Below are positions 1 through 12,128 of a stretch of DNA of 64,000 nt, one piece after another. The notes under the pieces were generated by a model that was given only the letters and a program-made list of their open reading frames with translations, ran no database searches and was not told where the DNA came from. Where the stretch lies: NCBI GenBank assembly GCA_963665145.1, contig OY762064.1, positions 1,410,403-1,474,402 on the forward strand, written 5' to 3'. The stretch comes from Gammaproteobacteria bacterium. GTDB taxonomy: Bacteria > Pseudomonadota > Gammaproteobacteria > Steroidobacterales > Foliamicaceae. Position 1 is the first letter of the stretch; every line of letters begins with the position of its first letter. The translations under genes were made by a program, and so were the position numbers.

Positions 1-683
1 GCGTCGATGGCTGCCATCAGGCCGTCTAGCGGGACCGAACCGTCACCCTTGGAGACAAACCATCCCACGGTGCCCTTGCCGAAGCTCCGGGCCTCGTCGA
101 AATAGTCGTAGTGAAACAGCAGGACCCCTGAGTTCATGCCGGCGTTGGTGTCTTTGAAGATACCGTCGATATCGAATTCCCAGACGTAGCTGCCGTTGCC
201 CCGGGTCCATATGCTGGACGTGAGCGGAACCCGGTCGCCGACCTTCCAGCCGTACTGGTTCGCCAGCGGTTCGCCGACGATCGCCCCACCCCGGTTGGCC
301 AGCCAGGCCTGCTTCTGTTCCTCCGGCAACTCGATCTCGGGATTCAGTGACAGGTATGGCTCAGCCACCACCGGGTACTGGGCAAACTCCGAGTTGTCCT
401 GGTAACTGGCGCCGAACCAGGTGCCGTGGGACACCGCCTCGATGCCCTCGATGCGCTCGATGCGCGACTGGTAAGCCACCGGCAACATCATGATCAGCGA
501 CACCTTGTGCGAAGACAACAGCCGCTCCTGGGCTTCGGGGCCTACGTCGGACAGGGACAGGGCGATGCGCAATCCTTCGAGCAGGGTGAAGAGAAAGAAC
601 ACCACGAGTATCGCCAGCATCGTGAAAACGGTGCGGATCGGTTTGCGCCACAAATTGCGCCAAACCAGGATGAAACGGTTCAT
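1..683 (-). CDS. ABC transporter permease, FtsX/MacB-type (5' part only; gene continues past the window start)
   Basis: Own translation of the minus strand from ATG at 683. The frame is open to the window edge, so it is absent from the ORF track: MNRFILVWRNLWRKPIRTVFTMLAILVVFFLFTLLEG... It has an N-terminal TM helix then a large extracytoplasmic loop, as in FtsX-family permeases. GGAGGA lies 9 nt upstream, and the gene starts 19 nt after the ATPase stop. Confidence 0.75.
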   Translation of the reverse strand, partial: MNRFILVWRNLWRKPIRTVFTMLAILVVFFLFTLLEGLRIALSLSDVGPEAQERLLSSHKVSLIMMLPVAYQSRIERIEGIEAVSHGTWFGASYQDNSEFAQYPVVAEPYLSLNPEIELPEEQKQAWLANRGGAIVGEPLANQYGWKVGDRVPLTSSIWTRGNGSYVWEFDIDGIFKDTNAGMNSGVLLFHYDYFDEARSFGKGTVGWFVSKGDGSVPLDGLMAAID

Positions 684-702: not shown

Positions 703-1398
703 TTAGTGGACTTCTTCCGGCGCCGCGCCGAGTTCGCCCTTGTCCAGGTGCAGCACGCGATGGGCGAAGGAGGCCGCGCGCGGATCGTGCGTGACCATAA
801 TGATGGTCTTACCGTAATCGCGGTTCAGCCGTTGAAGAAGACCCATGATTTCGTCGGCGGTGGCGCGGTCCAGGTCGCCGGTGGGCTCGTCGCACAGCAG
901 GACCGGCGGGTCGGACACGATGGCGCGGGCGATCGCTACCCGCTGCTCCTGGCCGCCGGACAGCTCGCGCGGGTAGTGCGATGCGCGGTTGGCCAGGCCC
1001 ACCAGTTGCAGTGCCGTATTGACGTGCTTCTTGCGCTGGGAGCCGGAAAGAGAGGTCAGCAGCAGGGGCAAGGCGACGTTGCGGGCGGCGGTAAGCACGG
1101 GCAGCAGGTTGTAGAACTGAAAGATGAACCCGATGTTGCGCGAGCGCCATTGCGTGAGCGCGCCGTGCGACAGCTTGCTGATGGCGATTTCGTTCACCCG
1201 CACCTCGCCCTTGGTCGGCTTGTCGAGACCGCCCAACAGGTTGAGCAGGGTGGTCTTGCCGGAGCCGGACGGGCCCATCAGGCCCACGAAGTCGCCCTTG
1301 CGGATACTCAGGCTGATCTTGTCCAGCACGCGAACGAGCTCACGTCCTTTGCGGTAATTCTTGCTGACGCCGGTCAGCTGAATGAATTCTGCGGCCAT
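703..1398 (-). CDS. ABC transporter ATP-binding protein (MacB/LolD-like ATPase)
   Basis: ORF 703..1476 trimmed to ATG 1398 ([15 protein letters not shown]). Walker [10 protein letters not shown], signature LSGGQEQR, Walker [12 protein letters not shown]. Confidence 0.9.
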
Positions 1399-1423
1399 GA
1401 CTTGCGCTTTTTGATTCGAACGC

Positions 1424-2659
1424 TTAAGGATATTGAATTTCCGCGCCGTCGGATAGCCCCGCGGGCGGATCGACAACGACTTTCTCGCCGCGCGACAGCC
1501 CCGAAAGAACCACGACCCGCGCTCCGTCCCGCTCGCCTGTCACCACCTCGCGGCGCAAGGCCCGGCCCTCCTCTGCCACGAACACCCAGTGATTGTCCAC
1601 CGGGCCCATCAGGGCCGAGGTGGCGATGCTCAGCCGGTCGGGTTCCGACGTGGCGGCCGGAGCGGGACCGCCCGCTTCGATGAACGACACTTTCGCTCCC
1701 ATGTCCGGCAGGATGCGCGTGTCGCGCTCAAGAATGCCGACCCGCACCCGCACCGTGGCCTTTTCGCGGTTGGCCGCCGGAACGATGGCGATCACTTCCG
1801 CCGGGATGCGCCACGCCGGATAAGCGTCCAGGCGCGCCGATACCGCTCCACCCTCCTGCACGCGCTGCAGGTAAGCCTCGTTCACGTCGACCTCGATTTC
1901 GAGCGAGTTCATGTCCACCAGGGTGCAGATACCGGTGCGCGTGAAGCCGCCGCCCGCAGACACCGGCGAGACCATTTCGCCCGGTTGCGCGTTCTTGTCG
2001 ATGACCCGGCCGGCAAACGGCGCGCGAATCACCGTCTCGCTGTGCGCCTGGCGCTGTACTTCCACGGCGCGCTCGGCCACCGTCACCGCCGCCTCGTGGG
2101 ATTTGAGGCGGGCGCTCAGGCGGTCGCGCACGGCCCTGGCGGCGTCCAGTTCGGCTTCGCTGGCCAGGCCCTGGGCATTCAGTTCCGACAGCCTCGAGAA
2201 GGAGAGTTCGGCTTCATGGAGCTCGGCGCCCGTTTCGCCCAGCGCGCTGTGTGCCGAAGCCAGCTGCGCCTCGGCAAGGCGCAACTGCGCCAGCTCCGCC
2301 GCGTCGTCCAGCTCCGCCACCACCTGCCCTTCTTCCACGCTCATGCCCTCTTCCACCAGCACCCTGCGGATTCGGCCGGTGCGTTTGGATGAGACCGTGG
2401 CGCTGCGCCTCGCAGTCACGTAGCCGCTGGCATCCAGAACGCTCGCGGCGCCGCCTGCGGACGACATCCGCACGCTCTCGACCCGCACTTCGGTGGTCGA
2501 GGCAGGCCAGAAAAGAGACGCCAGAAACGCAAGCACGCCGACCACGCACACGGTGCCGATCGTCGGCCAGAGGAAGCGCCTCAGCCGGCTTGCTTCGGGC
2601 TGCTCATCCCTTGGGATGCGCAGCCCCTCCAGGCTTGGGCTTGCGGAAGGCTCGTTCAC
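1424..2659 (-). CDS. Efflux periplasmic adaptor (HlyD/MacA-family membrane fusion protein)
   Basis: 411-aa ORF with an N-terminal TM segment (FLWPTIGTVCVVGVLAFLASLFW), a long coiled-coil-like Ala/Glu/Leu-rich segment, and a beta-rich C-terminus. The GTG start overlaps the upstream stop (GTGA at 2656-2659). Confidence 0.85.
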   Translation of the reverse strand: MNEPSASPSLEGLRIPRDEQPEASRLRRFLWPTIGTVCVVGVLAFLASLFWPASTTEVRVESVRMSSAGGAASVLDASGYVTARRSATVSSKRTGRIRRVLVEEGMSVEEGQVVAELDDAAELAQLRLAEAQLASAHSALGETGAELHEAELSFSRLSELNAQGLASEAELDAARAVRDRLSARLKSHEAAVTVAERAVEVQRQAHSETVIRAPFAGRVIDKNAQPGEMVSPVSAGGGFTRTGICTLVDMNSLEIEVDVNEAYLQRVQEGGAVSARLDAYPAWRIPAEVIAIVPAANREKATVRVRVGILERDTRILPDMGAKVSFIEAGGPAPAATSEPDRLSIATSALMGPVDNHWVFVAEEGRALRREVVTGERDGARVVVLSGLSRGEKVVVDPPAGLSDGAEIQYP

Positions 2660-4164
2660 TGAGCGGCGTGTTGGGACGGCGCTTCGCCCGCGGGGCTGCC
2701 GGTATGCTGCGACAGCACCGAATCAATGGCCTGGAAAAAAGCCTCCACGATGGGCCCGCGATAGCGGCCCACCGGCAGTCCGTTGTAGATGACCCGCGTC
2801 CCGTCCTGTACGTATTCCCGCACCAGCGGCTGGTTCCAGTCCGGATAGTCGATGGGCTGGTACAGGCTGTACTCGTCGAACCCATGGAAATTGACCATGG
2901 CGTGGCCGAAGGCCGTGTCGGTATTTTCGACGAAGAAGGAGATCGGCACGTTGACGACGTAGTCGAAACCATCGCGGATCCCGTCCCAGTACGCCTCATT
3001 GGTGGACAAATACCTGTCGTTGGGGTCGTTGATGGGATCGGCGAAATTCTCCTGGCTCGCCACGAGCTCGTGGCGGGCGAAGCCGTAGCTCTCCAGCAGT
3101 TCGCCGAGATCCTTCTCGGTGGCGTCCAGATACGCCGGAGCGAGCTGCAGCCAGGCCTCGTGCGGGACCCGGTCCCAGGGCATGCCGTGCGTGGATATCA
3201 CCACCTTTACGGAATCCTCGGGCGAGAACGTATCCAGCCGGTCCTTCAGCATCCGCACGTAGGCGCTGCGCGTAACCGGCTGGTCGCCGAGCTGTGGAGC
3301 GATGATCACCTTGATGTGCTTGTCGTTGCGCTCCTCCCACTCGTGGATGTAGTGCATGGCGTGCTTGATGCTGCCGTTGAATTCCTCATGGTGCGAGTAA
3401 ATCGGCCGCGGCATCGCCAACAGTACCGTATCGATCCCGGTGTCCAGGAGTTCATACATGGCCTTTCGGGCCATGCCGAAGTTATCGGCGGTGACCCAGG
3501 CCCAGGGAATGTCGCCGTACTCCTGATGGACCCGTTGCATGGCCTCTTCGGCGATGATGCGATTGCCGGACTCGTGGGGGATCCGGCCGTCCATGAAACC
3601 CTTGCCGGGGGCGTAATAGAACACCCGGCACTTGGTGATCAGCCGGGCCGCCGACGCGGGCATGCCCGCCATGCGGCCGGGAAGCAGGAAGTATCCCTGG
3701 GCCAGGTAGGTGCCGGGCGAGGGCGGCGACCACACCACTTCGCCGGTGAGGTACTTGTCGGCGTACGGCACGCCGTCGTAGTCGGTGTCGCGTCCCAGGT
3801 GGTCGATCAGCCGGGTGGGGGTGAATTCCTCGAACTCGTAATAGCGCTCCGCATCCATGAGCACCACGCCGCGGTCGACGTTGGCGATATTGCGGACCGG
3901 CCAGGGGATGTACTGCAGGCTCTTCTGCGCCAGGACGTAGTAGTCCTCAAAGCGCAGTTCTTCCGGCTGGATCAGGTGCGAGATGAACACGCCCACGCGG
4001 CCTTCAGGCCGTGTGTCCTGGGTCTTGTAGTAGGCGAAGTAGTTCGGCTCCACCAGTTGCGGCGGAGTGCGGTTCATGTACTTGAACACGACGAATCCCG
4101 CGACCCCGAGCGTGAACACGGCAATCAGGCACACCACGGCCACCTTGAGGAGCCTCTTCATCAT
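2656..4164 (-). CDS. Membrane-anchored ferrochelatase-fold (class II chelatase-like) protein, paralog A; function unknown
   Basis: 502-aa ORF with an N-terminal TM helix (LLKVAVVCLIAVFTLGVAGFVVF). By-eye alignment to ferrochelatase landmarks: GVFISHLIQP ~ GxLLxNLGTP, DTVLLAMPRPIYSHH ~ xIVVLPLYPQFS, KVVISTHGMPW ~ LLxSAHSLP/SYHGIP, YVVNVPISFFVENTDT ~ PxGFVxDHxETL. ATGA overlap with the upstream paralog. Confidence 0.7.
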   Translation of the reverse strand: MMKRLLKVAVVCLIAVFTLGVAGFVVFKYMNRTPPQLVEPNYFAYYKTQDTRPEGRVGVFISHLIQPEELRFEDYYVLAQKSLQYIPWPVRNIANVDRGVVLMDAERYYEFEEFTPTRLIDHLGRDTDYDGVPYADKYLTGEVVWSPPSPGTYLAQGYFLLPGRMAGMPASAARLITKCRVFYYAPGKGFMDGRIPHESGNRIIAEEAMQRVHQEYGDIPWAWVTADNFGMARKAMYELLDTGIDTVLLAMPRPIYSHHEEFNGSIKHAMHYIHEWEERNDKHIKVIIAPQLGDQPVTRSAYVRMLKDRLDTFSPEDSVKVVISTHGMPWDRVPHEAWLQLAPAYLDATEKDLGELLESYGFARHELVASQENFADPINDPNDRYLSTNEAYWDGIRDGFDYVVNVPISFFVENTDTAFGHAMVNFHGFDEYSLYQPIDYPDWNQPLVREYVQDGTRVIYNGLPVGRYRGPIVEAFFQAIDSVLSQHTGSPAGEAPSQHAAQ

Positions 4165-5690
4165 CCGGGCTGCCCTGCCTCATGCGTGACGCCGGCGATC
4201 CGTTCGGTCCGTCCGCCGGACGGATCGCCGGAATGCTGCGAAAGAACCGCATCCATCGCCTGGAAGAAGGCCTCGACGATGGGCTGGCGGTAACGGCCCA
4301 CCGGCGTGCCGTTGTAGATCACCCGCGTGCCGTCCTGGACGAACTCCCGGACCATGGGCTGGTCCCAGTCGGAGTAGTCGATCGGCTCGTAAATCGTGAA
4401 GTCGTCAAAGAACTCGAAATTGAACATGGCGTGGGAAAAGGCCGTGTCGGTGTTCTCCACGTAGAACTCGATCGGAACGTTGACGATATGGCTGAAGCCG
4501 TCATGGATGCCGTCCCAGAAGGCTTCATTGGTGGACAGGTACCTGCCCTGGGGATTATTGATCGGATCGGCGAAATGGTCCTGGCTGAGCACCACTTCGT
4601 GGCGCGCGAAACCGTAGCCTTCCACGATCTTGCGGGCGTCCTCCACCATGGCGTCGCGGTACGGCGGCGCCAGCTCGATCCAGGCCTCGTGCGGCACGAA
4701 ATCCCAGGGCATTCCGTGAGTGGATATCACTACCTTTACGGAATCCTCCGGCGAGAAGGTGTCCAGCCGGTCCTTCAGCATGTCCAGGTAGGCCCGGCGC
4801 AGGACCGGAAACTCGCCCAGCTGCGGCGTCATGATGACCTTCACGTGCCTGCCGTTCATTTCCTCCCACTCGTGGATGTAGTGCATGGCGTGCTTGAAGG
4901 CGCCGTTGAACTCCTCGTGGTGCGAGTAGATCGGCCGCGGGGCTGCCAGTATCACCGTGTCGATACCCGTATCCAGCAGTTCATACATGGCCTGACGCGC
5001 CATGCCGAAATTGTCGGCGGTGACCCAGGCCCAGGGAATGTCGCCGTACCTCTCATGCACCTTCTGCATGGCTTCCTCGGCAATCACCCGGTTGCCGGAC
5101 TCATGCGGCACCCGGCCGTCGGTGAATCCCTTGCCGGGTGCGTAGTAGTAGACCTGGCACTTGGTCACCAGCTTGGCGGAGAGGAGCGGCATTCCGGACT
5201 TGCGCCCGGGAAGCAGGAAATAGCCGTGATCGAGGTGGCGCGTCGGTGAAGGCGGCCTCCAGACCACCTCTCCGGTCAGGTACTTGTCCGCATAGGGCAC
5301 GCCGTCGTAGTCCGTATCGCGGCCCAGGTGGTCGATCAGCCGGGTGGGGGTGAATTCCTCGAACTCGTAGAAGCGCTCCGAATCCATCAGCAGCACGCCC
5401 TGGTCGCGGTTGGCGAGATTGCGAATCGGCCAGGGGATGTATTGCAGGCTTTTCTGCGCCAGGACGTAGTAGTCCTCAAAGCGCAGTTCTTCCGGCTGGA
5501 TCAGGTGCGAGATGAACACGCCCACGCGGCCTTCAGGCCGTGTGTCCTGGGTCTTGTAGTAGGCGAAGTAGTTCGGCTCCACCAGTTGCGGCGGAGTGCG
5601 GTTCTTGTACTTGAAAATGCCGTATCCGGCGGCGCCGAGCGCGAAAACGGCGGCCACCGCCACTACCACCCCCTTGAGCAGTTTCTTCAT
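4161..5690 (-). CDS. Membrane-anchored ferrochelatase-fold (class II chelatase-like) protein, paralog B; function unknown
   Basis: 509-aa ORF, colinear with paralog A over its whole length and carrying the same motifs (VVISTHGMPW, NVPIEFYVENTDT). N-terminal TM helix (VVVAVAAVFALGAAGYGIF). ATGA overlaps at both ends (5687-5690 and 4161-4164). Confidence 0.7.
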   Translation of the reverse strand: MKKLLKGVVVAVAAVFALGAAGYGIFKYKNRTPPQLVEPNYFAYYKTQDTRPEGRVGVFISHLIQPEELRFEDYYVLAQKSLQYIPWPIRNLANRDQGVLLMDSERFYEFEEFTPTRLIDHLGRDTDYDGVPYADKYLTGEVVWRPPSPTRHLDHGYFLLPGRKSGMPLLSAKLVTKCQVYYYAPGKGFTDGRVPHESGNRVIAEEAMQKVHERYGDIPWAWVTADNFGMARQAMYELLDTGIDTVILAAPRPIYSHHEEFNGAFKHAMHYIHEWEEMNGRHVKVIMTPQLGEFPVLRRAYLDMLKDRLDTFSPEDSVKVVISTHGMPWDFVPHEAWIELAPPYRDAMVEDARKIVEGYGFARHEVVLSQDHFADPINNPQGRYLSTNEAFWDGIHDGFSHIVNVPIEFYVENTDTAFSHAMFNFEFFDDFTIYEPIDYSDWDQPMVREFVQDGTRVIYNGTPVGRYRQPIVEAFFQAMDAVLSQHSGDPSGGRTERIAGVTHEAGQPG

Positions 5691-6694
5691 TGTCTTGGCT
5701 GACCCTCGATTTCCAGAGCGTCGGCAGGCTCGGCGAACGGCACCCTTCCCAACCAGGCGCCGGCGTCCGCGGCCGTCTCAAGCGGCGCTTCCTGGATCGC
5801 CATATGCCCGACGCCGGGGTAAATGATAGTCTCAACCGACGGCGAGTTCGCAAGCAGTCGAGCAAGTTCAGCAGCCAGTTCCACATGCACCTGCGGGTTC
5901 TCCTCGCCCCATTGAATCAGCACCGGCGCCCGCAGCTGTCCGATCAGTTCCTCGATGTCGCCGGAAATGTACTGCCGCAGGCGCGCCAACTGGGCCGGTC
6001 GCTGACCCTCAAGCCGCCACAGGTCATGCCAGCGGTCCACCAGTTCGTCGGACACCTTCGAGGGATCGCCGAAACCGGTCTTGAGCATGAATTCCGGCAG
6101 TGCGCGGGGGGTGATCCAGCGCACCAGCACGGTTGCCGGCGACATGCGCGGCGGCGCCTGCCGGCCGCGCACATTGGGCTCCAGAGAGCCCGGCGAGATC
6201 AGCACCAGGCCGGCCACCCGGTCCGGGTTGCGAGCCGTGTAGTGCATCGCCACGGTGCCGCCCAGGGACGTTCCCACGATCACGCAGCGATCCACACCTA
6301 TGCGGTCGAGCAAGTGCTCCATCAGGTCCACCGTGCGCGGCAGGCCGTAGTCGCCGGTAGCGTCGGCGCCGCTCAGGCCGTGGCTGGTCATGTCGAAGCG
6401 CACCACGCGAAAACGGTCCTTGAGCATCTCGGCCCACGGGTCCCAGCCGATCAGGCTGGCGAAGTTGGCGTGGATCAACACCACCGCCGGTCCCTGTCCC
6501 TCATCGCGATAGTGGATGCGGGCGCCGTCGATCTCGGCGAACTGCGAAGCCGGCGTAGCGTAGCGGGCCTCGAGCTTCTCCGCCGGGATGTCACGCCAGA
6601 TCCAGGCGGCCACGGCGAAGGCAATCAGCACCAGCGAAATCAGTCCCCCTAGTGCCCATGCCAGACCCAGCAGAATGCCCCGTACTATCCTCAC
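5687..6694 (-). CDS. Alpha/beta-fold hydrolase with N-terminal membrane anchor
   Basis: 335-aa ORF with an N-terminal TM helix (ILLGLAWALGGLISLVLIAFAVAAWIW). Nucleophile elbow GTSLGG, HG-type oxyanion region (VVLIHAN), and a C-terminal catalytic His context (GVGHMA). The GTG start overlaps the anti-sigma stop (GTGA). Confidence 0.8.
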   Translation of the reverse strand: MRIVRGILLGLAWALGGLISLVLIAFAVAAWIWRDIPAEKLEARYATPASQFAEIDGARIHYRDEGQGPAVVLIHANFASLIGWDPWAEMLKDRFRVVRFDMTSHGLSGADATGDYGLPRTVDLMEHLLDRIGVDRCVIVGTSLGGTVAMHYTARNPDRVAGLVLISPGSLEPNVRGRQAPPRMSPATVLVRWITPRALPEFMLKTGFGDPSKVSDELVDRWHDLWRLEGQRPAQLARLRQYISGDIEELIGQLRAPVLIQWGEENPQVHVELAAELARLLANSPSVETIIYPGVGHMAIQEAPLETAADAGAWLGRVPFAEPADALEIEGQPRQ

Positions 6695-7452
6695 AATGGA
6701 CGCTCGGGCCGGGAACCGGTGGCCGCGACCAGCAGCAGCGGACCGTCGGAAACCACCACCCCGCCCGCCTGTTCGAGCGTTACGGCGAACGCCACGGGAG
6801 CGTCCACCGGAAGCTTGGCGTCAACCCTGATCACCGCTTCGCCCGATGCGGATGCATTGAATACGCCGCCGTCAACCAGGTTCGCGTAGCGGTCCGGGTC
6901 GACGATCCACAGTTGATACTGCTGGTCATCCGGGTCGTTCAGCGGCAGGCCTGCAAACCGCATCTCGCCGGCCTGCAGCGAATCGCTCCAGATGATTTCT
7001 CCGCGCACCTGTTCATAAGCAGTAATTTCCGAGCGCCAGGGTAGCGCAAGAGCGTCGGGCGCCGATTGAACCATCGCGGGTTCCGGGAGTATCGGCGGAC
7101 GCTCAAGCAGCACCGAGGATACCAGCCACGCCAGCCCCATCGCCGTGGCTGCCGCCCATCCCCAGCGGGCCGACCGGTTCACCCGCCGCGGCGGAGTGTC
7201 CACGGCCCGCGCGCGGCCCATGCCCGACAAGCGTGCACGCAACTCCTCCGGCATGCGGCGGTGGCCGGCGCGGTCCTCGGCCAGGAATGCCGCCTGCGCC
7301 AGCGCGGCCGCCTCATGCATTGCGTCCCGCTCGCGCCTGCGCTGTTGCGACGGCAGTGCGCCCAACAGTGCCTTCAACTCCTGGTGGTCGGCCTCGTCGA
7401 GCGTGAGTTCGGTAGCCTCAGCGGCCAGCAATTCGTGGAGTCTGTCAGCCAT
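6691..7452 (-). CDS. Anti-sigma factor, RskA-like (single TM, extracytoplasmic C-terminal domain)
   Basis: ORF 6691..7494 trimmed to ATG 7452 (MADRLHELL), overlapping the sigma gene stop by 8 nt. Central TM helix (WGWAAATAMGLAWLVSSVLL). The C-terminal segment (YQLWIVD...VAFAVTLEQAGGV) resembles the anti-sigma-K RskA C-terminal domain. Confidence 0.7.
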   Translation of the reverse strand: MADRLHELLAAEATELTLDEADHQELKALLGALPSQQRRRERDAMHEAAALAQAAFLAEDRAGHRRMPEELRARLSGMGRARAVDTPPRRVNRSARWGWAAATAMGLAWLVSSVLLERPPILPEPAMVQSAPDALALPWRSEITAYEQVRGEIIWSDSLQAGEMRFAGLPLNDPDDQQYQLWIVDPDRYANLVDGGVFNASASGEAVIRVDAKLPVDAPVAFAVTLEQAGGVVVSDGPLLLVAATGSRPERPL

Positions 7453-8044
7453 GGCCACCACTTTGCCCTTCGCGCTCTGCATTGAGCGCTTCACGCATGC
7501 GTATCAGGCTGCGCCGGATTCGCGTCTTGACGGTACCGATAGGCATATTCAGGCGTTTAGCGATCTCGCTATGTGAATATCCTTCGTATAAGGACAGCGA
7601 AAGGATTTCCCTTTCATTGTCCGACAACATGCCCAGCAGCGGGCGGACCTGTATCGACGCCAGTTGTGCCTCCAGGCGGGCGTCTCCGTCCAGGGACGGG
7701 TCGACCTCATCGCCCATCAAGGGCACGCTGTCCCCGAACCGTGCTTCGTGGCGGATCTGATCGATTATCCGGCGGCGGGCCACGGTCAGCACGAAGGTCA
7801 ATTCACTACCCCTCTGGCGGCGAAAGCGGCCGGCGCTGGACCAAAGGGACAGGAAGGCCTCCTGGACCGACTCCTGGGCGACCGGCGAGGTCCCGAAATA
7901 GCGCCGCGCCAGCGACCAGATCAGATCGCCGTACTTGTCGACGAGATCTGCCATCGCCTGCGGATCGCCTTCCGCTACGCGTTCCAGGATCGCGGGTCCC
8001 GGCGCGGGACGGGAATCCTGCGGCGGCGCCTTCGAGGTGTTCAC
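7445..8044 (-). CDS. RNA polymerase ECF-type sigma-70 factor
   Basis: 199-aa ORF with sigma region 2 (DLIWSLARRYF...QEAFLSLW) and a region 4 HTH (LSLYEGYSHSEIAKRLNMPIGTVKTRIRRSL). GTG start at 8044; the exact start is uncertain. Confidence 0.88.
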   Translation of the reverse strand: MNTSKAPPQDSRPAPGPAILERVAEGDPQAMADLVDKYGDLIWSLARRYFGTSPVAQESVQEAFLSLWSSAGRFRRQRGSELTFVLTVARRRIIDQIRHEARFGDSVPLMGDEVDPSLDGDARLEAQLASIQVRPLLGMLSDNEREILSLSLYEGYSHSEIAKRLNMPIGTVKTRIRRSLIRMREALNAEREGQSGGHG

Positions 8045-8181
8045 GCGATCATCCAGGGAGTCGTTCGGCCTTGAGAAAGACCGGATTGTATTCTCCCGCC
8101 CGCGTGACGGAGCGGAGAAACTTCGATTTGCTGCGTCGCTCGCATAGACTGGAGCCGGCGGACTTCGAAATTGGGTAAGGA

Positions 8182-9963
<1,782 letters not shown>

Positions 9964-10006
9964 GGCCGTGGTATAAACGCGCACCTGACCCAAGGGAGGA
10001 ATACGA

Positions 10007-10513
10007 ATGAACTCAGCACCCCCAATCCGGAACATCGTGAAGCGCACCACGCTGATCGTGAGAGACATGGAAAAGAGCCGCCGCTGGTACGAGCACGTGC
10101 TGGGAATGAAGACCTGGATCGACATGCCCTACACCCTTTCCGGAAAGGGCATCGCCGCGGGCAAGAAGGGCGATGTCACGCACCTGGTCATCATGCAGTG
10201 CGAGGACCCGAGGATCGGCATGATCGGCCTGCTGCAGTGGGTGGACCCGCCGCTGCCGGCGCCGGAGATTCCGACTTCCGTGGGTTACGGCACGCCGGTC
10301 TTCGTAGTGGACACCGAAGATGCCGCGGAAGTAGCCCGGCGGGCCGGGGAGTTGGGCACCCTTGTGCATACGCCGGAACGGACTTTTCAGGTGCGAGGGT
10401 CCAAGGGTGAGCTGCGCCACCTGCTGGGTTGCGCCATCTTTGATCCGGACGGGTATTTCTACGAGTGCAACCAGCTGCTGAAGGTCGACGAACCGGAACA
10501 GAAAGCAGGCTAG
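10007..10513 (+). CDS. VOC (glyoxalase/bleomycin-resistance/dioxygenase) family protein
   Basis: 168-aa ORF with VOC-like beta-alpha-beta-beta-beta repeats (TTLIVRDMEKSRRWYEHVLGMK ... IFDPDGYFYE). Confidence 0.7.
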   Translation: MNSAPPIRNIVKRTTLIVRDMEKSRRWYEHVLGMKTWIDMPYTLSGKGIAAGKKGDVTHLVIMQCEDPRIGMIGLLQWVDPPLPAPEIPTSVGYGTPVFVVDTEDAAEVARRAGELGTLVHTPERTFQVRGSKGELRHLLGCAIFDPDGYFYECNQLLKVDEPEQKAG

Positions 10514-10544: not shown

Positions 10545-11330
10545 ATGATCGAATATCCCGGATTCGATCCCGTGGCCCTGCGCATCGGGCCGCTGGCCAT
10601 ACGCTGGTACGGCCTGACGTACCTGCTGGGTTTCGTAGCCGCCTGGTGGCTGGCCAACCGGCGCAGCCGCAAACCCGGCAGCGCCTTCACGCCGGTCATG
10701 GTCCAGGACCTGCTTTTCTACTGTTTCCTCGGCGTCATTCTCGGCGGGCGGCTGGGCTACCTGCTGTTCTACGGCTGGGAGCAGATCATTCAGGATCCGC
10801 TGTACGTCTTCCGTATCTGGGAAGGCGGAATGTCGTTTCACGGCGGCCTGCTCGGCGTCTGCGCCGCAGTGCTGCTGTTCGCCCGCAAGCATTCCAGCAC
10901 CTTTGTCAATGTGGCCGATTTCGTGGTCCCGCTGGTCCCCATCGGGCTGGGCGCGGGGCGCATCGGCAATTTCATCAACGGCGAACTCTGGGGCAAGCCC
11001 AGCACTGCGCCCTGGGCCTTCGTGGTGGACGGCGTGGGCCGGCACCCCACCCAGTTGTACGAGGCTTTCCTGGAAGGCCTGGTGCTGTTCACCGCGCTTT
11101 GGTGGTACACGGCGGAGAGCGCCTCGGGGCAACGCGACAAGGGGCGAGCGACCGGACTGTTCCTGGCCGGGTATGGCGTTTCCCGGTTCCTGGTGGAATT
11201 CTGGCGCCTGCCGGATGAACACCTGGGCTACCTGGCCTTCGGCTGGCTGACCATGGGGCAGCTCCTTACGCTGCCGATGATCGGTTTCGGCGTTTGGCTC
11301 CTTTCACGGCGCTCGCCCGCGACGGCCTAG
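10545..11330 (+). CDS. lgt: Prolipoprotein diacylglyceryl transferase
   Basis: 261-aa ORF: PVALRIGPLAIRWYGLTYLLGF..., GGRLGY, GRIGNFINGELWG and HPTQLYEA are typical Lgt motifs. It lies upstream of thyA, as in many gammaproteobacteria. Confidence 0.93.
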   Translation: MIEYPGFDPVALRIGPLAIRWYGLTYLLGFVAAWWLANRRSRKPGSAFTPVMVQDLLFYCFLGVILGGRLGYLLFYGWEQIIQDPLYVFRIWEGGMSFHGGLLGVCAAVLLFARKHSSTFVNVADFVVPLVPIGLGAGRIGNFINGELWGKPSTAPWAFVVDGVGRHPTQLYEAFLEGLVLFTALWWYTAESASGQRDKGRATGLFLAGYGVSRFLVEFWRLPDEHLGYLAFGWLTMGQLLTLPMIGFGVWLLSRRSPATA

Positions 11331-11333
11331 TGC

Positions 11334-12128
11334 ATGCGCCAGTACCTCGAGCTTCTTCAGGACATCCTGGAAAACGGAACCGAGCGTCACGACCGTACGG
11401 GAACCGGGACCCGGGCGGTGTTCGGGCGGCAGCTGCGCTTCGACCTGGCGGACGGCTTTCCGATGCTGACCACCAAGAAGCTGCCGCTGCGGATCATCGC
11501 GGTGGAATTGCTGTGGTTTCTGCGCGGCGGGACCAACGTGAAATGGCTTCAGGAGCGGCGCGTGAATATCTGGAACGAGTGGGCCGATGAAAACGGCAAT
11601 CTCGGCCCGGTGTACGGCGCGCAATGGCGGCGCTGGCCCGACGGCAAGGGCGGCGCCATCGACCAGGTAGAGGCCGCGCTGAACACCATCCGCGAAGATC
11701 CCGATTCGCGGCGCATCATCATCAACGCCTGGAACGTCGCCGAGATCCCGCGGATGAAACTACCGCCCTGCCACATGATGCTGCAGTTGCACGTCAGCGG
11801 CGGCAGGCTGTCGGGGCAGTTGTATCAACGCAGTGCCGATTTTTTTCTCGGCGCTCCCTTCAACATCGCCTCGTATTCCCTGCTGATCAGCATGATGGCC
11901 GAGCAGACCGGCCTGCAACCCGGAGAGTTCGTCTGGACAGGCGGCGACTGCCACTTGTACGGCAATCACCACAAGCAGGCCCTCGAGCAGCTCAAACGCC
12001 GGCCGCGCCCGCTGCCGAAACTGGAAATCCGCGGCGGGCGGCCGTCCATCGACGACTACCGGGAAAACGATTTCATTCTGCACGGTTACGACCCCCATCC
12101 GCATATCGCAGCGCCGATTTCGGTCTGA
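11334..12128 (+). CDS. thyA: Thymidylate synthase
   Basis: 264-aa ORF: [31 protein letters not shown]..., PPCHMMLQ active-site Cys context, C-terminal HIAAPISV. Confidence 0.96.

Follow-up and report, generated by a model that had tools for sequence, protein, structure and literature searches.

Two ferrochelatase-like proteins with predicted export signals, encoded beside a MacB-type pump in an uncultured gammaproteobacterium

HemH-type ferrochelatases are regarded as cytoplasmic or organellar enzymes of terminal haem synthesis. The chelatases known to reside outside the cytoplasm belong to a different branch, that of CbiK. They are the periplasmic CbiK(P) of D. vulgaris (2XVX/2XVY) and the outer-membrane protein FetB of P. 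gingivalis (9B86); CbiK and FetB bind metallated porphyrins, and FetB has been linked to an unusual metalloporphyrin, Mn-protoporphyrin IX (Mn-PPIX) (PMC13065792). Here we describe two adjacent genes, FCL1 and FCL2 (FCL for ferrochelatase-like), from a bacterium classified in the gammaproteobacterial family Foliamicaceae. They lie in a stretch of 64,000 nucleotides (assembly GCA_963665145.1, contig OY762064.1, positions 1,410,403 to 1,474,402), the whole of which is called the window below. Their products fall, as divergent members, within the superfamily of HemH-type class II chelatases (ferrochelatases) and have kept its two-domain fold. They belong to a distinct, uncharacterised and mostly exported branch of HemH-type chelatases, which preserves the catalytic histidine/carboxylate site.

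Two further systems invite comparison. In E. coli, YfeX and EfeB take the iron from haem and leave protoporphyrin IX intact, and MacAB-TolC expels the protoporphyrin IX that is raised by deferrochelation or iron shortage (PMC4263509). The same functional logic is proposed below for the window, where a MacA/MacB-type pump is encoded directly downstream of the FCL genes. YfeX and EfeB differ, however, in being alpha+beta barrels of the dye-decolourising peroxidase type, a fold unrelated to that of the chelatases, and the E. coli genes do not form one operon. The pump of the window, for its part, has a different make-up, which resembles LolCDE with an adaptor added: its ATPase and its two FtsX permeases are all separate proteins. 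The other system is PlaF of P. aeruginosa (6I8W), an enzyme with phospholipase A1 activity that is anchored in the inner membrane, and the catalytic domain of which was shown experimentally to be periplasmic (PMC9132575). The hydrolase encoded upstream of FCL1 shares with it a single N-terminal transmembrane helix, an alpha/beta-hydrolase domain and the GxSxG motif, whereas the sequence similarity is low (69.7 bits). Targeted text searches of PMC9132575 show no association of PlaF with a chelatase-like gene.

The two genes are open reading frames (ORFs) of the minus strand:

4161..5690, minus strand: FCL1, the upstream paralogue, 509 amino acids (aa), N-terminus MKKLLK, ferrochelatase-like
2656..4164, minus strand: FCL2, the downstream paralogue, 502 aa, N-terminus MMKRLLK, ferrochelatase-like

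They stand in tandem, with stop and start overlapping in ATGA. FCL1 and FCL2 are genuine genes and not chance ORFs of a region of 64% GC, because a word-indexed protein search yields 420 homologues at E<=1e-3 and the ratio of nonsynonymous to synonymous substitution rates (dN/dS) between the copies is 0.22 (dS 0.65; 77% identity of the proteins). Each copy has an orthologue lineage of its own: the closest relatives of FCL1 are P0001-P0005, at 80-94% identity, and FCL2 goes with P0006-P0023, of which P0007 is 99.6% identical to it. Most of the relatives in sponge symbionts are of the FCL2 orthologue type. Public databases annotate members as 'hypothetical protein' or, in the case of some members processed by the pipelines of the Joint Genome Institute (JGI), automatically as 'protoheme ferro-lyase'. 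The GC content of the region is 62-66%, and many long spurious ORFs are found on the opposite strand. The very long ORFs that face real genes at 2251-4293 (+), 4182-5249 (+) and 8041-10125 (-), of 355-694 aa, are typical high-GC artefacts and could mislead ORF-based gene calling in the window.

The kinship with ferrochelatases was first proposed by a sequence-only reading of this DNA, which had aligned four segments by eye and singled out basic N-termini followed by a hydrophobic stretch. All these strings are present, in place, in the two ORFs. GVFISHLIQP and VVISTHGMPW occur in both proteins; LLAMPRPIYSHH of FCL2 has its counterpart ILAAPRPIYSHH in FCL1, and NVPISFFVENTDT of FCL2 corresponds to NVPIEFYVENTDT of FCL1. 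Alignments with hidden Markov models (HMM and HH) show the four-block alignment to be correct. The Pfam profile Ferrochelatase (PF00762), with a gathering cut-off of 27, scores 32.0 bits with FCL1 and 28.3 bits with FCL2; the match spans profile positions about 70-279 of 317. Searches of the PDB sequences with a single sequence or with a profile of close relatives returned nothing relevant, and when the close-family alignment (A1) was compared with E. coli HemH by hhalign, the probability was 1.8%. A search with E. coli HemH itself listed relatives at 86-98% identity only. An exhaustive HMMER search of 1.84 billion cluster representatives (50% identity) yielded no more than 154 proteins at E<=1e-3, and among them are full-length members with as little as about 17-30% identity. 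The homology to solved ferrochelatases became significant only once distant members had joined the alignment, the extended-family alignment A2 of 26 sequences. In 22 of these 26 the PF00762 profile matches individually (best E 6.4e-17). The A2 profile matches the coproporphyrin ferrochelatase CpfC (9vi5, E 4.1e-8) and human FECH (E 1.7e-5), and hhalign now aligns it with E. coli HemH over 218 columns with a probability of 96.6% and an E of 5.8e-10.

The predicted structure tells the same story. The AlphaFold2 model of FCL1 (predicted local distance difference test, pLDDT, 87.4; predicted template modelling score, pTM, 0.85) shows the two Rossmann-like alpha/beta domains of the chelatase fold. 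When it is compared with the PDB by Foldseek, ranks 1-43 are all ferrochelatases, with E from 1.5e-10, a probability of 1.00 and target-normalised template modelling (TM) scores of 0.62-0.71; the human, yeast, B. subtilis, B. anthracis and L. monocytogenes enzymes are among them. By this measure HemH/PpfC, CpfC and human FECH share the two-domain fold of the modelled FCL1. The first non-ferrochelatase is FetB (9b86, CbiK-type) at rank 44, with an E of 1.5e-5 and a target-normalised TM of 0.53. Also, the CbiX profile of Pfam matches weakly in a single one of the 26 members (E 0.001), and CbiK/CbiX is not the closest branch. CbiK(P) and FetB thus resemble the FCL proteins, as we propose them to work, in presenting a class II chelatase fold outside the cytoplasm, and they are the closest functional precedents. 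They differ in belonging to the CbiK/CbiX branch, in their size of about 260-290 aa with no large insertions, in the lower TM score (0.53 vs 0.62-0.71), and in their genomic partners, which are haem uptake loci. Their existence also means that the general statement of the sequence-only reading, by which canonical bacterial ferrochelatases and CbiX/CbiK act on the cytoplasmic side, is not fully true. Its central claim, which places both proteins in the ferrochelatase superfamily as atypical members that are exported or anchored by the N-terminus, is borne out by PF00762, the PDB profile match, hhalign and Foldseek, and the profile and structural similarity to class II chelatases that it had wished to see checked is there.

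The four sequence blocks occur in FCL in the same order as in ferrochelatases. Their positions in the window and the residues that correspond to each other are as follows:

5490..5525, minus strand: FCL1 block 1, VGVFISHLIQPE, residues 56-67; equals the first beta-strand and loop, ferrochelatase GILMLNMGGPE (HMM alignment to the human enzyme)
4908..4925, minus strand: FCL1 S256-H-H-E-E-F; equals the ferrochelatase active-site loop P-Q-Y/F-S
4716..4718, minus strand: codon of FCL1 His325; equals catalytic His263 (human) and His194 (E. coli), by hmmsearch and hhalign
4446..4457, minus strand: FCL1 E412-N-T-D415; equals D340-H-I-E343 (human) and D272-C-L-E275 (E. coli)
3187..3189, minus strand: codon of FCL2 His326, equivalent of FCL1 His325
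2917..2928, minus strand: FCL2 E413-N-T-D416, equivalent of FCL1 E412-N-T-D415

FCL1 GVFISHLIQPE (block 1); human FECH GILMLNMGGPE; E. coli HemH not aligned
FCL1 P195; human FECH P131; E. coli HemH P75
FCL1 S256 (PIYS256); human S195 (PQYS195); E. coli S132 (PQFS132)
FCL1 H325 (STH325GMP); human H263 (SAH263SLP); E. coli H194 (SYH194GIP)
FCL1 F409; human FECH F337; E. coli HemH F269
FCL1 E412-N413-T414-D415; human D340-H341-I342-E343; E. coli D272-C273-L274-E275

The spacing of the later blocks is similar as well: 69 residues from the serine to the histidine (62-68 in ferrochelatases) and 90 from the histidine to the acidic residue (80-81 there). Across A2, that is down to 17% identity, only three columns are invariant in 26/26, H325, G326 and D415. 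The histidine of VVISTHGMPW had been taken for the catalytic one, and rightly so; it aligns with H263/H194, and both it and the acidic position are conserved in every homologue of A2. At least 90% conserved are S256, E259, P195, P406 and F409. The pair His325/Asp415, together with Glu412 and Phe409, has thus been kept; in ferrochelatases this set lies under the porphyrin and serves proton abstraction and metal binding. Of the human porphyrin pocket, F337 at its back, Y123 and K118 are also kept as Phe409, Tyr182 and Lys177, so that FCL shares with ferrochelatases the catalytic histidine, the pocket-back phenylalanine, the tyrosine and lysine, and the acidic pair in the pi-helix motif. The core family adds residues that ferrochelatases lack, namely conserved His196, His257-His258-Glu259-Glu260 and His420; the His-His pair after S256 is conserved in the core family only.

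The departures are no less telling. The propionate-binding residues R115, Y123 and S130 are described as identical in all known ferrochelatases (PMC9133952). In FCL1 only the tyrosine is kept (Tyr182); by HMM and HH alignment R115 is replaced by Leu174 and S130 by Val194. Confidence in the alignment is moderate at the R115 helix, and Lys173 and Lys177 are near Leu174. In the pi-helix motif Glu343 is exchanged for aspartate, Asp340 for glutamate and His341 for asparagine; at the position of the glutamate (E343/E275), D415 is aspartate throughout the family. The sequence-only reading had stressed that DHxE is altered to ENTD. Altered it is, yet the histidine of DHxE is itself not invariant: hemH of E. 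coli K-12 (L084:2056-3018) carries DCLE, with cysteine in its place. Judged from these sequences, this histidine is no defining residue of active ferrochelatases, and N413 is unremarkable because E. coli HemH has a cysteine there. The informative changes, on the same comparison, are the exchange of glutamate for aspartate and the loss of two propionate ligands. The hemH equivalog of NCBIfam (TIGR00109, cut-off 124.6) gives 22.1 bits with FCL1 and no match with FCL2. In this score, in Glu343, in R115 and in S130 the proteins depart from haem-biosynthetic ferrochelatases. They are no standard HemH, because two of the three universal propionate-binding residues are replaced, and they are not expected to be the haem-biosynthetic ferrochelatase of the cell.

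FCL1 is also longer than ferrochelatases by about 190 residues, exactly 189 if compared with E. coli HemH (320 aa). About 50 of them are N-terminal (signal or anchor and linker), about 49 C-terminal, about 70 are inserted in domain 1 between block 1 and the conserved proline (P66 to P195 in FCL1 vs P16 to P75 in HemH), and about 20 are scattered between later blocks. The insertion of about 100 aa and the C-terminal extension of about 60 aa postulated before were roughly right, but both are shorter as measured, and the N-terminal share has to be added.

Both proteins begin with an N-terminus of charge +3, which is followed by 19-20 hydrophobic residues:

5613..5669, minus strand: FCL1 hydrophobic segment VVVAVAAVFALGAAGYGIF, residues 8-26, after MKKLLKG; Sec signal-anchor or cleavable signal peptide
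4084..4143, minus strand: FCL2 hydrophobic segment VAVVCLIAVFTLGVAGFVVF, residues 8-27

AlphaFold2 puts a helix over residues 2-29 of FCL1. A basic n-region plus hydrophobic segment is found at the N-terminus of 119 of the 128 full-length members. The positive-inside rule, from which a periplasmic catalytic domain had been derived, was rejected as decisive evidence of topology. Over these 119 members the mean number of lysines and arginines flanking the segment is 1.98 on the N-side and 2.10 on the C-side, which is uninformative; by net charge, 64 members would be N-in and 38 C-in. The periplasmic location as such is nevertheless favoured, on other grounds: FCL1 and FCL2 are very probably exported, because they have a Sec-type N-terminus, because homologues exist with lipoprotein-type signals or with a signal plus a C-terminal anchor, and because their partners are envelope proteins. 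The lipobox-like N-termini are those of P0124 and P0141 (VAAC, IFSC), and low-GC homologues such as P0234 combine an N-terminal signal with a C-terminal anchor and a KKNKRY tail. In FCL1 an h-region, V8-L18, is followed by G-A-A|G, as read from the sequence, and the N-terminus could be a cleavable signal peptide instead of an anchor. A weak match of the Pfam family 'Salyut' to the transmembrane segment of FCL2 (E 0.0094, below the cut-off) was disregarded.

Unlike ferrochelatases, then, FCL is probably extracytoplasmic, and it is encoded together with genes of efflux, an esterase and a cytochrome instead of genes of haem biosynthesis, none of which is seen nearby. The other members of the operon within the window are:

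7445..8044, minus strand: extracytoplasmic function (ECF) sigma factor, first operon gene; Pfam Sigma70_r2, r4_2 and Sigma70_ECF; same order in L002-L016 and L097
6691..7494, minus strand: anti-sigma factor with C-terminal RskA domain; Pfam RskA_C 1.1e-9; conserved upstream in 14 related loci
5687..6694, minus strand: PlaF-like alpha/beta-hydrolase, 335 aa; Pfam Abhydrolase_1 6.7e-25; N-terminal transmembrane helix, nucleophile elbow G-T-S143-L-G
1424..2659, minus strand: MacA/HlyD-type periplasmic adaptor, 411 aa; TIGR01730 RND_mfp 167.8 bits vs cut-off 94.9; Pfam HlyD_D23
703..1398, minus strand: MacB/LolD-type ATP-binding cassette (ABC) ATPase; Pfam ABC_tran 5.9e-35; best NCBIfam matches LolD, FtsE, MacB, DevA
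1..683, minus strand: first FtsX-type permease, N-terminal part (227 codons), which exits the window; orthologues in L002/L097

The gene order is ECF sigma, anti-sigma, PlaF-like hydrolase, FCL1, FCL2, adaptor, ABC ATPase, two FtsX permeases and cytochrome c'. Stop/start overlaps of 4 nt run from the anti-sigma gene through the adaptor: the hydrolase stop overlaps the FCL1 start and the adaptor start the FCL2 stop. The ORFs of sigma and anti-sigma factor overlap by about 50 nt. Translation of the ATPase probably starts with the ATG at 1398, which gives 231 aa, the length also called in L097; the mechanical ORF reaches 1476. L097 is a near-identical contig of 3.06 Mb that shows what comes just beyond position 1 of the window: the second permease and, as the last gene of the operon, cytochrome c' (PF01322, L097:11880-12341), after which comes a DUF885 gene. 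The orthologues of the first permease in L002 and L097 have 386 aa and match Pfam FtsX, and the second permease has 396 aa and matches MacB_PCD and FtsX; the fragment in the window has no Pfam match of its own. With the permeases taken from L002/L097, all parts of a MacB-type tripartite pump (adaptor, ATPase, FtsX/MacB_PCD permease) are present, and no gene for an outer-membrane factor is seen in the locus. The DUF885 gene follows cytochrome c' in 10 sponge-symbiont loci (L002:16338-18080, L097:12413-13509), and the DUF885 product of L002 has, by eye, a lipobox-like N-terminus, MSGC. The best PDB match of the hydrolase is PlaF, 6I8W (E 2.1e-18, residues 20-322, the N-terminal helix included), but many other hydrolase classes score nearly as well. 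Its match to PF00756 (E 2.8e-4) is below the cut-off, and it is of the Abhydrolase_1/PlaF type and not an IroE/Fes esterase. Scans of the window detected no Rfam families, tRNAs or sigma-70-like promoters, and terminator-like sites are no commoner than in shuffles.

How general is this arrangement? A scan of GTDB with one genome per species returned 91 relatives, all of them in metagenome-assembled genomes (MAGs). The hosts are sponge-associated Gammaproteobacteria (closest 'Candidatus Foliamicus'), Rhodospirillaceae and other Alphaproteobacteria, and also bins labelled Chromatiaceae and Steroidobacteraceae; the samples are marine, lake (deep-lake included), groundwater and soil. So far the family is confined to uncultured Gamma- and Alphaproteobacteria. 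The tandem pair of the window recurs in L097 and L098, more divergent tandem pairs in L056, L061, L062 and L078, and 15 loci of the sponge type have a single-copy version of the same operon. No canonical hemH is found in 1.69 Mb of the relatives' loci. The contigs of P0234, P0133 and P0141 are too short for an informative context.

Neighbours were counted in the 53 loci with at least 5 kb on either side, adjacency meaning a distance within 300 nt. The most constant neighbour is the alpha/beta-hydrolase gene, adjacent in 34/53 loci and often duplicated or doubled; an ABC ATPase is encoded within 5 kb in 37/53. Three types of exporter recur: MacB-type, ABC-2/DUF3526 and resistance-nodulation-division (RND). 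They appear in several architectures. In one, the genes beside TetR encode an ABC ATPase, two ABC-2/DUF3526 permeases, FCL, a 'double' hydrolase of about 565 aa or two such hydrolases, and HSP20. In another, TetR, ABC, MacB, RND and adaptor genes are divergent from those for hydrolase, FCL, a 169-aa protein, cytochrome c' and cytochrome c. A third consists of an ABC-2/DUF3526 pump, FCL, cytochrome c', cytochrome c and the hydrolase. A cytochrome c' gene follows downstream on the same strand in 19/80 loci, in two different architectures (L001-L016, L018, L019, L021, L027). Its recurrence, and that of cytochrome b561 in distant relatives, suggests a periplasmic redox partner. In Rhodospirillaceae-type loci (L081:6275-13291, L088:6254-15011, L019:1121-4826), the FCL gene comes directly after genes under TetR that encode an ATPase and paired ABC-2 permeases (about 490 aa, both members of a pair with DUF3526); then come the unusual hydrolases of about 565 aa, with two hydrolase-fold matches. 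Elsewhere, a fusion of tetratricopeptide repeats (TPR) with a 2-oxoglutarate (2OG)-Fe(II) oxygenase (PF13759), about 500 aa long, overlaps the start of the FCL gene (L023:85-1605, L083:8511-10004), which suggests translational coupling.

A distant subfamily of about 30% identity, which keeps the ENTD motif, lives in other company. In L095 (3395-8088) and L096 the operon comprises a TonB-dependent receptor, FCL and a major facilitator superfamily (MFS) transporter. In L093 (4479-10140) and L094 it comprises TetR, FCL and cytochrome b561, with a divergent TonB receptor gene, and adjoins the haem exporter genes ccmAB. The lipoprotein-type member of L087 lies beside AraC and a TonB receptor. The TonB/MFS context of this subfamily is of the import type and thus opposite to the efflux context of the window. 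The TonB receptors encoded next to distant members score best with a siderophore-receptor subfamily, at 146.6-199.7 bits, which is below the cut-off of 223.5. A single locus deserves separate mention: L091 has, at 1359-2162 (-), a gene of the red chlorophyll catabolite (RCC) reductase family (PF06405, 61.6 bits vs a cut-off of 24.9), with a GntR regulator, a flavin reductase, the distant FCL gene P0130 and cytochrome b561 as neighbours. This one locus hints at catabolism of linear or cyclic tetrapyrroles.

What might such a protein do? Tentatively, we favour a role on the periplasmic side of the inner membrane, where a metal would be inserted into a tetrapyrrole or withdrawn from one, in coupling with envelope transport or efflux. 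An envelope signal would switch on the operon through the ECF sigma/anti-sigma pair. FCL would be exported by its Sec-type N-terminus and then either remain tethered to the inner membrane on its periplasmic face or be set free there. It would bind a tetrapyrrole (haem, porphyrin or other metalloporphyrin) from the outer leaflet or the periplasm and move a divalent metal out of it or into it. As a dechelatase or by metal exchange, it would run the ferrochelatase reaction outside the cell. The cytochrome encoded alongside, which is c' here and b561 in distant relatives, would donate electrons that keep the metal in a labile reduced state, as ferrous iron. The PlaF-like anchored esterase might attack the same substrate within the membrane, or else the lipids around it. 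The product, be it a free porphyrin with its phototoxicity or a metalloporphyrin of no use to the cell, would leave through the MacA/MacB-type pump encoded directly downstream. The conserved His/Asp/Glu/Phe set and the retained tyrosine and lysine of the pocket suggest metal chemistry on a porphyrin-like ligand. That E. coli expels protoporphyrin IX through MacAB-TolC makes the MacB-type pump a plausible outlet, and the TonB receptors and MFS partners of distant members would fit periplasmic processing of an imported chelate.

A good deal weighs against this proposal. With the equivalents of R115 and S130 replaced by Leu174 and Val194, the ligand may be something other than a dicarboxylic porphyrin, or it may be held differently. 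The catalytic glutamate is an aspartate, and the human variant E343D is impaired at a step after chelation (PMC9133952). The esterase, although the most constant partner, has a role that a haem substrate does not explain, and MacB-type pumps have many substrates. In 11 of the 53 loci the surrounding 5 kb contain no hydrolase gene and no gene for part of an exporter. The neighbourhoods are heterogeneous, and some include a luciferase-like monooxygenase and an MFS transporter, the TPR-2OG oxygenase, or nitroreductase, NmrA and short-chain dehydrogenase/reductase (SDR) neighbours. Nor is the wider family uniformly exported, since the distant members P0133 and P0137 lack the N-terminal hydrophobic segment. 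Finally, no Fur box with three or fewer mismatches is found in the window; in nine promoter regions the best matches to the Fur box, 9-12 of 19, are within background, and the regulators are ECF, TetR, AraC and GntR. The absence of such signals also argues against simple iron acquisition, and the reading of the locus as a simple iron-acquisition operon was downgraded, as neither a Fur box nor any other signal of iron regulation was found.

The same observations can be read in other ways. FCL might bind haem or porphyrin and move no metal at all; the ligand, held by His325 and neighbouring histidines and glutamates, would be handed to the MacB-type pump for detoxification, to the TonB-receptor/MFS route for uptake, or to cytochrome c'. 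We consider this unlikely, even though metallated porphyrins have been found with periplasmic CbiK and FetB, either co-purified or bound, the loss of two propionate ligands and the exchange of glutamate for aspartate fit relaxed catalytic constraints, and a linkage to importers as well as exporters is what one would expect of a shuttle. A mere binder would not need the whole pi-helix motif that is kept at 17-30% identity. What is invariant is precisely the pair of the catalytic and metal site, His325 and Asp415, along with Gly326; Glu412 and Phe409 are kept, and the cytochrome partners suggest redox chemistry. Equally doubtful to us is a reuse of the fold for a substrate other than a tetrapyrrole. 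This might be a metallophore or ferric siderophore, which the esterase would hydrolyse and the cytochrome reduce, with the pump recycling the fragments; or it might be a molecule derived from membrane lipids that is processed along with the PlaF-like lipase. The lost propionate ligands are compatible with either. The set of esterase, reductase-like cytochromes, exporter and MFS transporter does resemble periplasmic siderophore processing, and the TonB receptors of distant members lean, below the cut-off, towards siderophores. MacAB reportedly exports linearised products of enterobactin. The lipid variant can point to the closest solved relative of the hydrolase, a phospholipase. To our knowledge, however, all characterised class II chelatases act on a tetrapyrrole, and Tyr182, Lys177 and Phe409 of the porphyrin pocket are retained. 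Genes of siderophore biosynthesis and FecIR-type regulators are not seen in the locus any more than Fur boxes are, and the hydrolase, being of the Abhydrolase_1/PlaF type, is not the IroE/Fes esterase that siderophore hydrolysis would lead one to look for.

A more specific idea starts from the esterase. Chlorophylls are the only class of tetrapyrroles known to need alpha/beta-hydrolase steps, those of chlorophyllase, pheophytinase and pheophorbidase, and a hydrolase is the adjacent gene in most of the loci counted. The esterase might cut the phytyl or methyl ester of a chlorophyll or bacteriochlorophyll derivative, FCL remove the magnesium, and the pump expel the phototoxic product. Esterified or cyclised propionates would account for the loss of the R115/S130 ligands, sponge-associated and aquatic hosts are exposed to algal debris, and there is the RCC-reductase-family gene near one distant member. 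Yet that is one locus, members also occur in MAGs from deep lakes, groundwater and soil, and the cytochrome partners are left unexplained. Moreover, the known Mg-dechelatase, SGR, is unrelated. We therefore regard detoxification of chlorophyll derivatives as very improbable. Least credible of all is an alternative haem-making ferrochelatase that is tethered N-out/C-in and faces the cytoplasm. The JGI label 'protoheme ferro-lyase' and the catalytic histidine speak for it, canonical ferrochelatases are membrane-associated, and the equal lysine/arginine counts on both flanks of the helix make the topology compatible with the positive-inside rule. But it would require translocation of an N-terminal tail with three lysines. 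It is also at odds with the equivalog result (22.1 bits vs 124.6 for FCL1, no match for FCL2), the absence of the universal R115 and S130 equivalents, the homologues with lipoprotein-type signals or with a signal plus C-terminal anchor, and the periplasmic or envelope nature of the operon partners, among which no gene of haem biosynthesis is found.

The family described here is a conserved HemH-type one with export signals, a kept histidine/carboxylate site and altered substrate-binding residues, and its genes recur beside those for esterases, efflux pumps, TonB receptors and periplasmic cytochromes. A literature search found no paper that joins 'ferrochelatase-like' with the periplasm, and none that mentions DUF3526. 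Should the proteins indeed move metals outside the cytoplasm, this would bear on how bacteria detoxify or scavenge haem, porphyrins and chlorophyll debris, on the cargo of MacB-type and ABC-2/DUF3526 pumps, and on the annotation of hundreds of proteins that are now called 'hypothetical' or, misleadingly, 'protoheme ferro-lyase'. One may even imagine a complete pathway of periplasmic tetrapyrrole demetallation in heterotrophic aquatic and sponge-associated proteobacteria. The anchored esterase and an exported HemH-type 'reverse ferrochelatase' would strip ester tails and central metal from imported or membrane-intercalated haem or chlorophyll derivatives, the cytochromes c' or b561 would provide the reduction, and MacB-type, ABC-2 or RND pumps would expel the phototoxic macrocycle. 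We hold this to be decidedly unlikely in its entirety; if true, it would amount to a new enzyme class, an extracytoplasmic HemH-type dechelatase, and to a new route of tetrapyrrole turnover.

On the other side of the operon, four divergent ORFs of the plus strand (8182-9963, 10007-10513, 10545-11330 and 11334-12128) appear to be ordinary housekeeping genes. The first two have gene calls in L097, as a thioredoxin-domain (DsbH-like) protein of 593 aa and a member of the glyoxalase family; the last two resemble, by reading of their translations, lgt and thyA.

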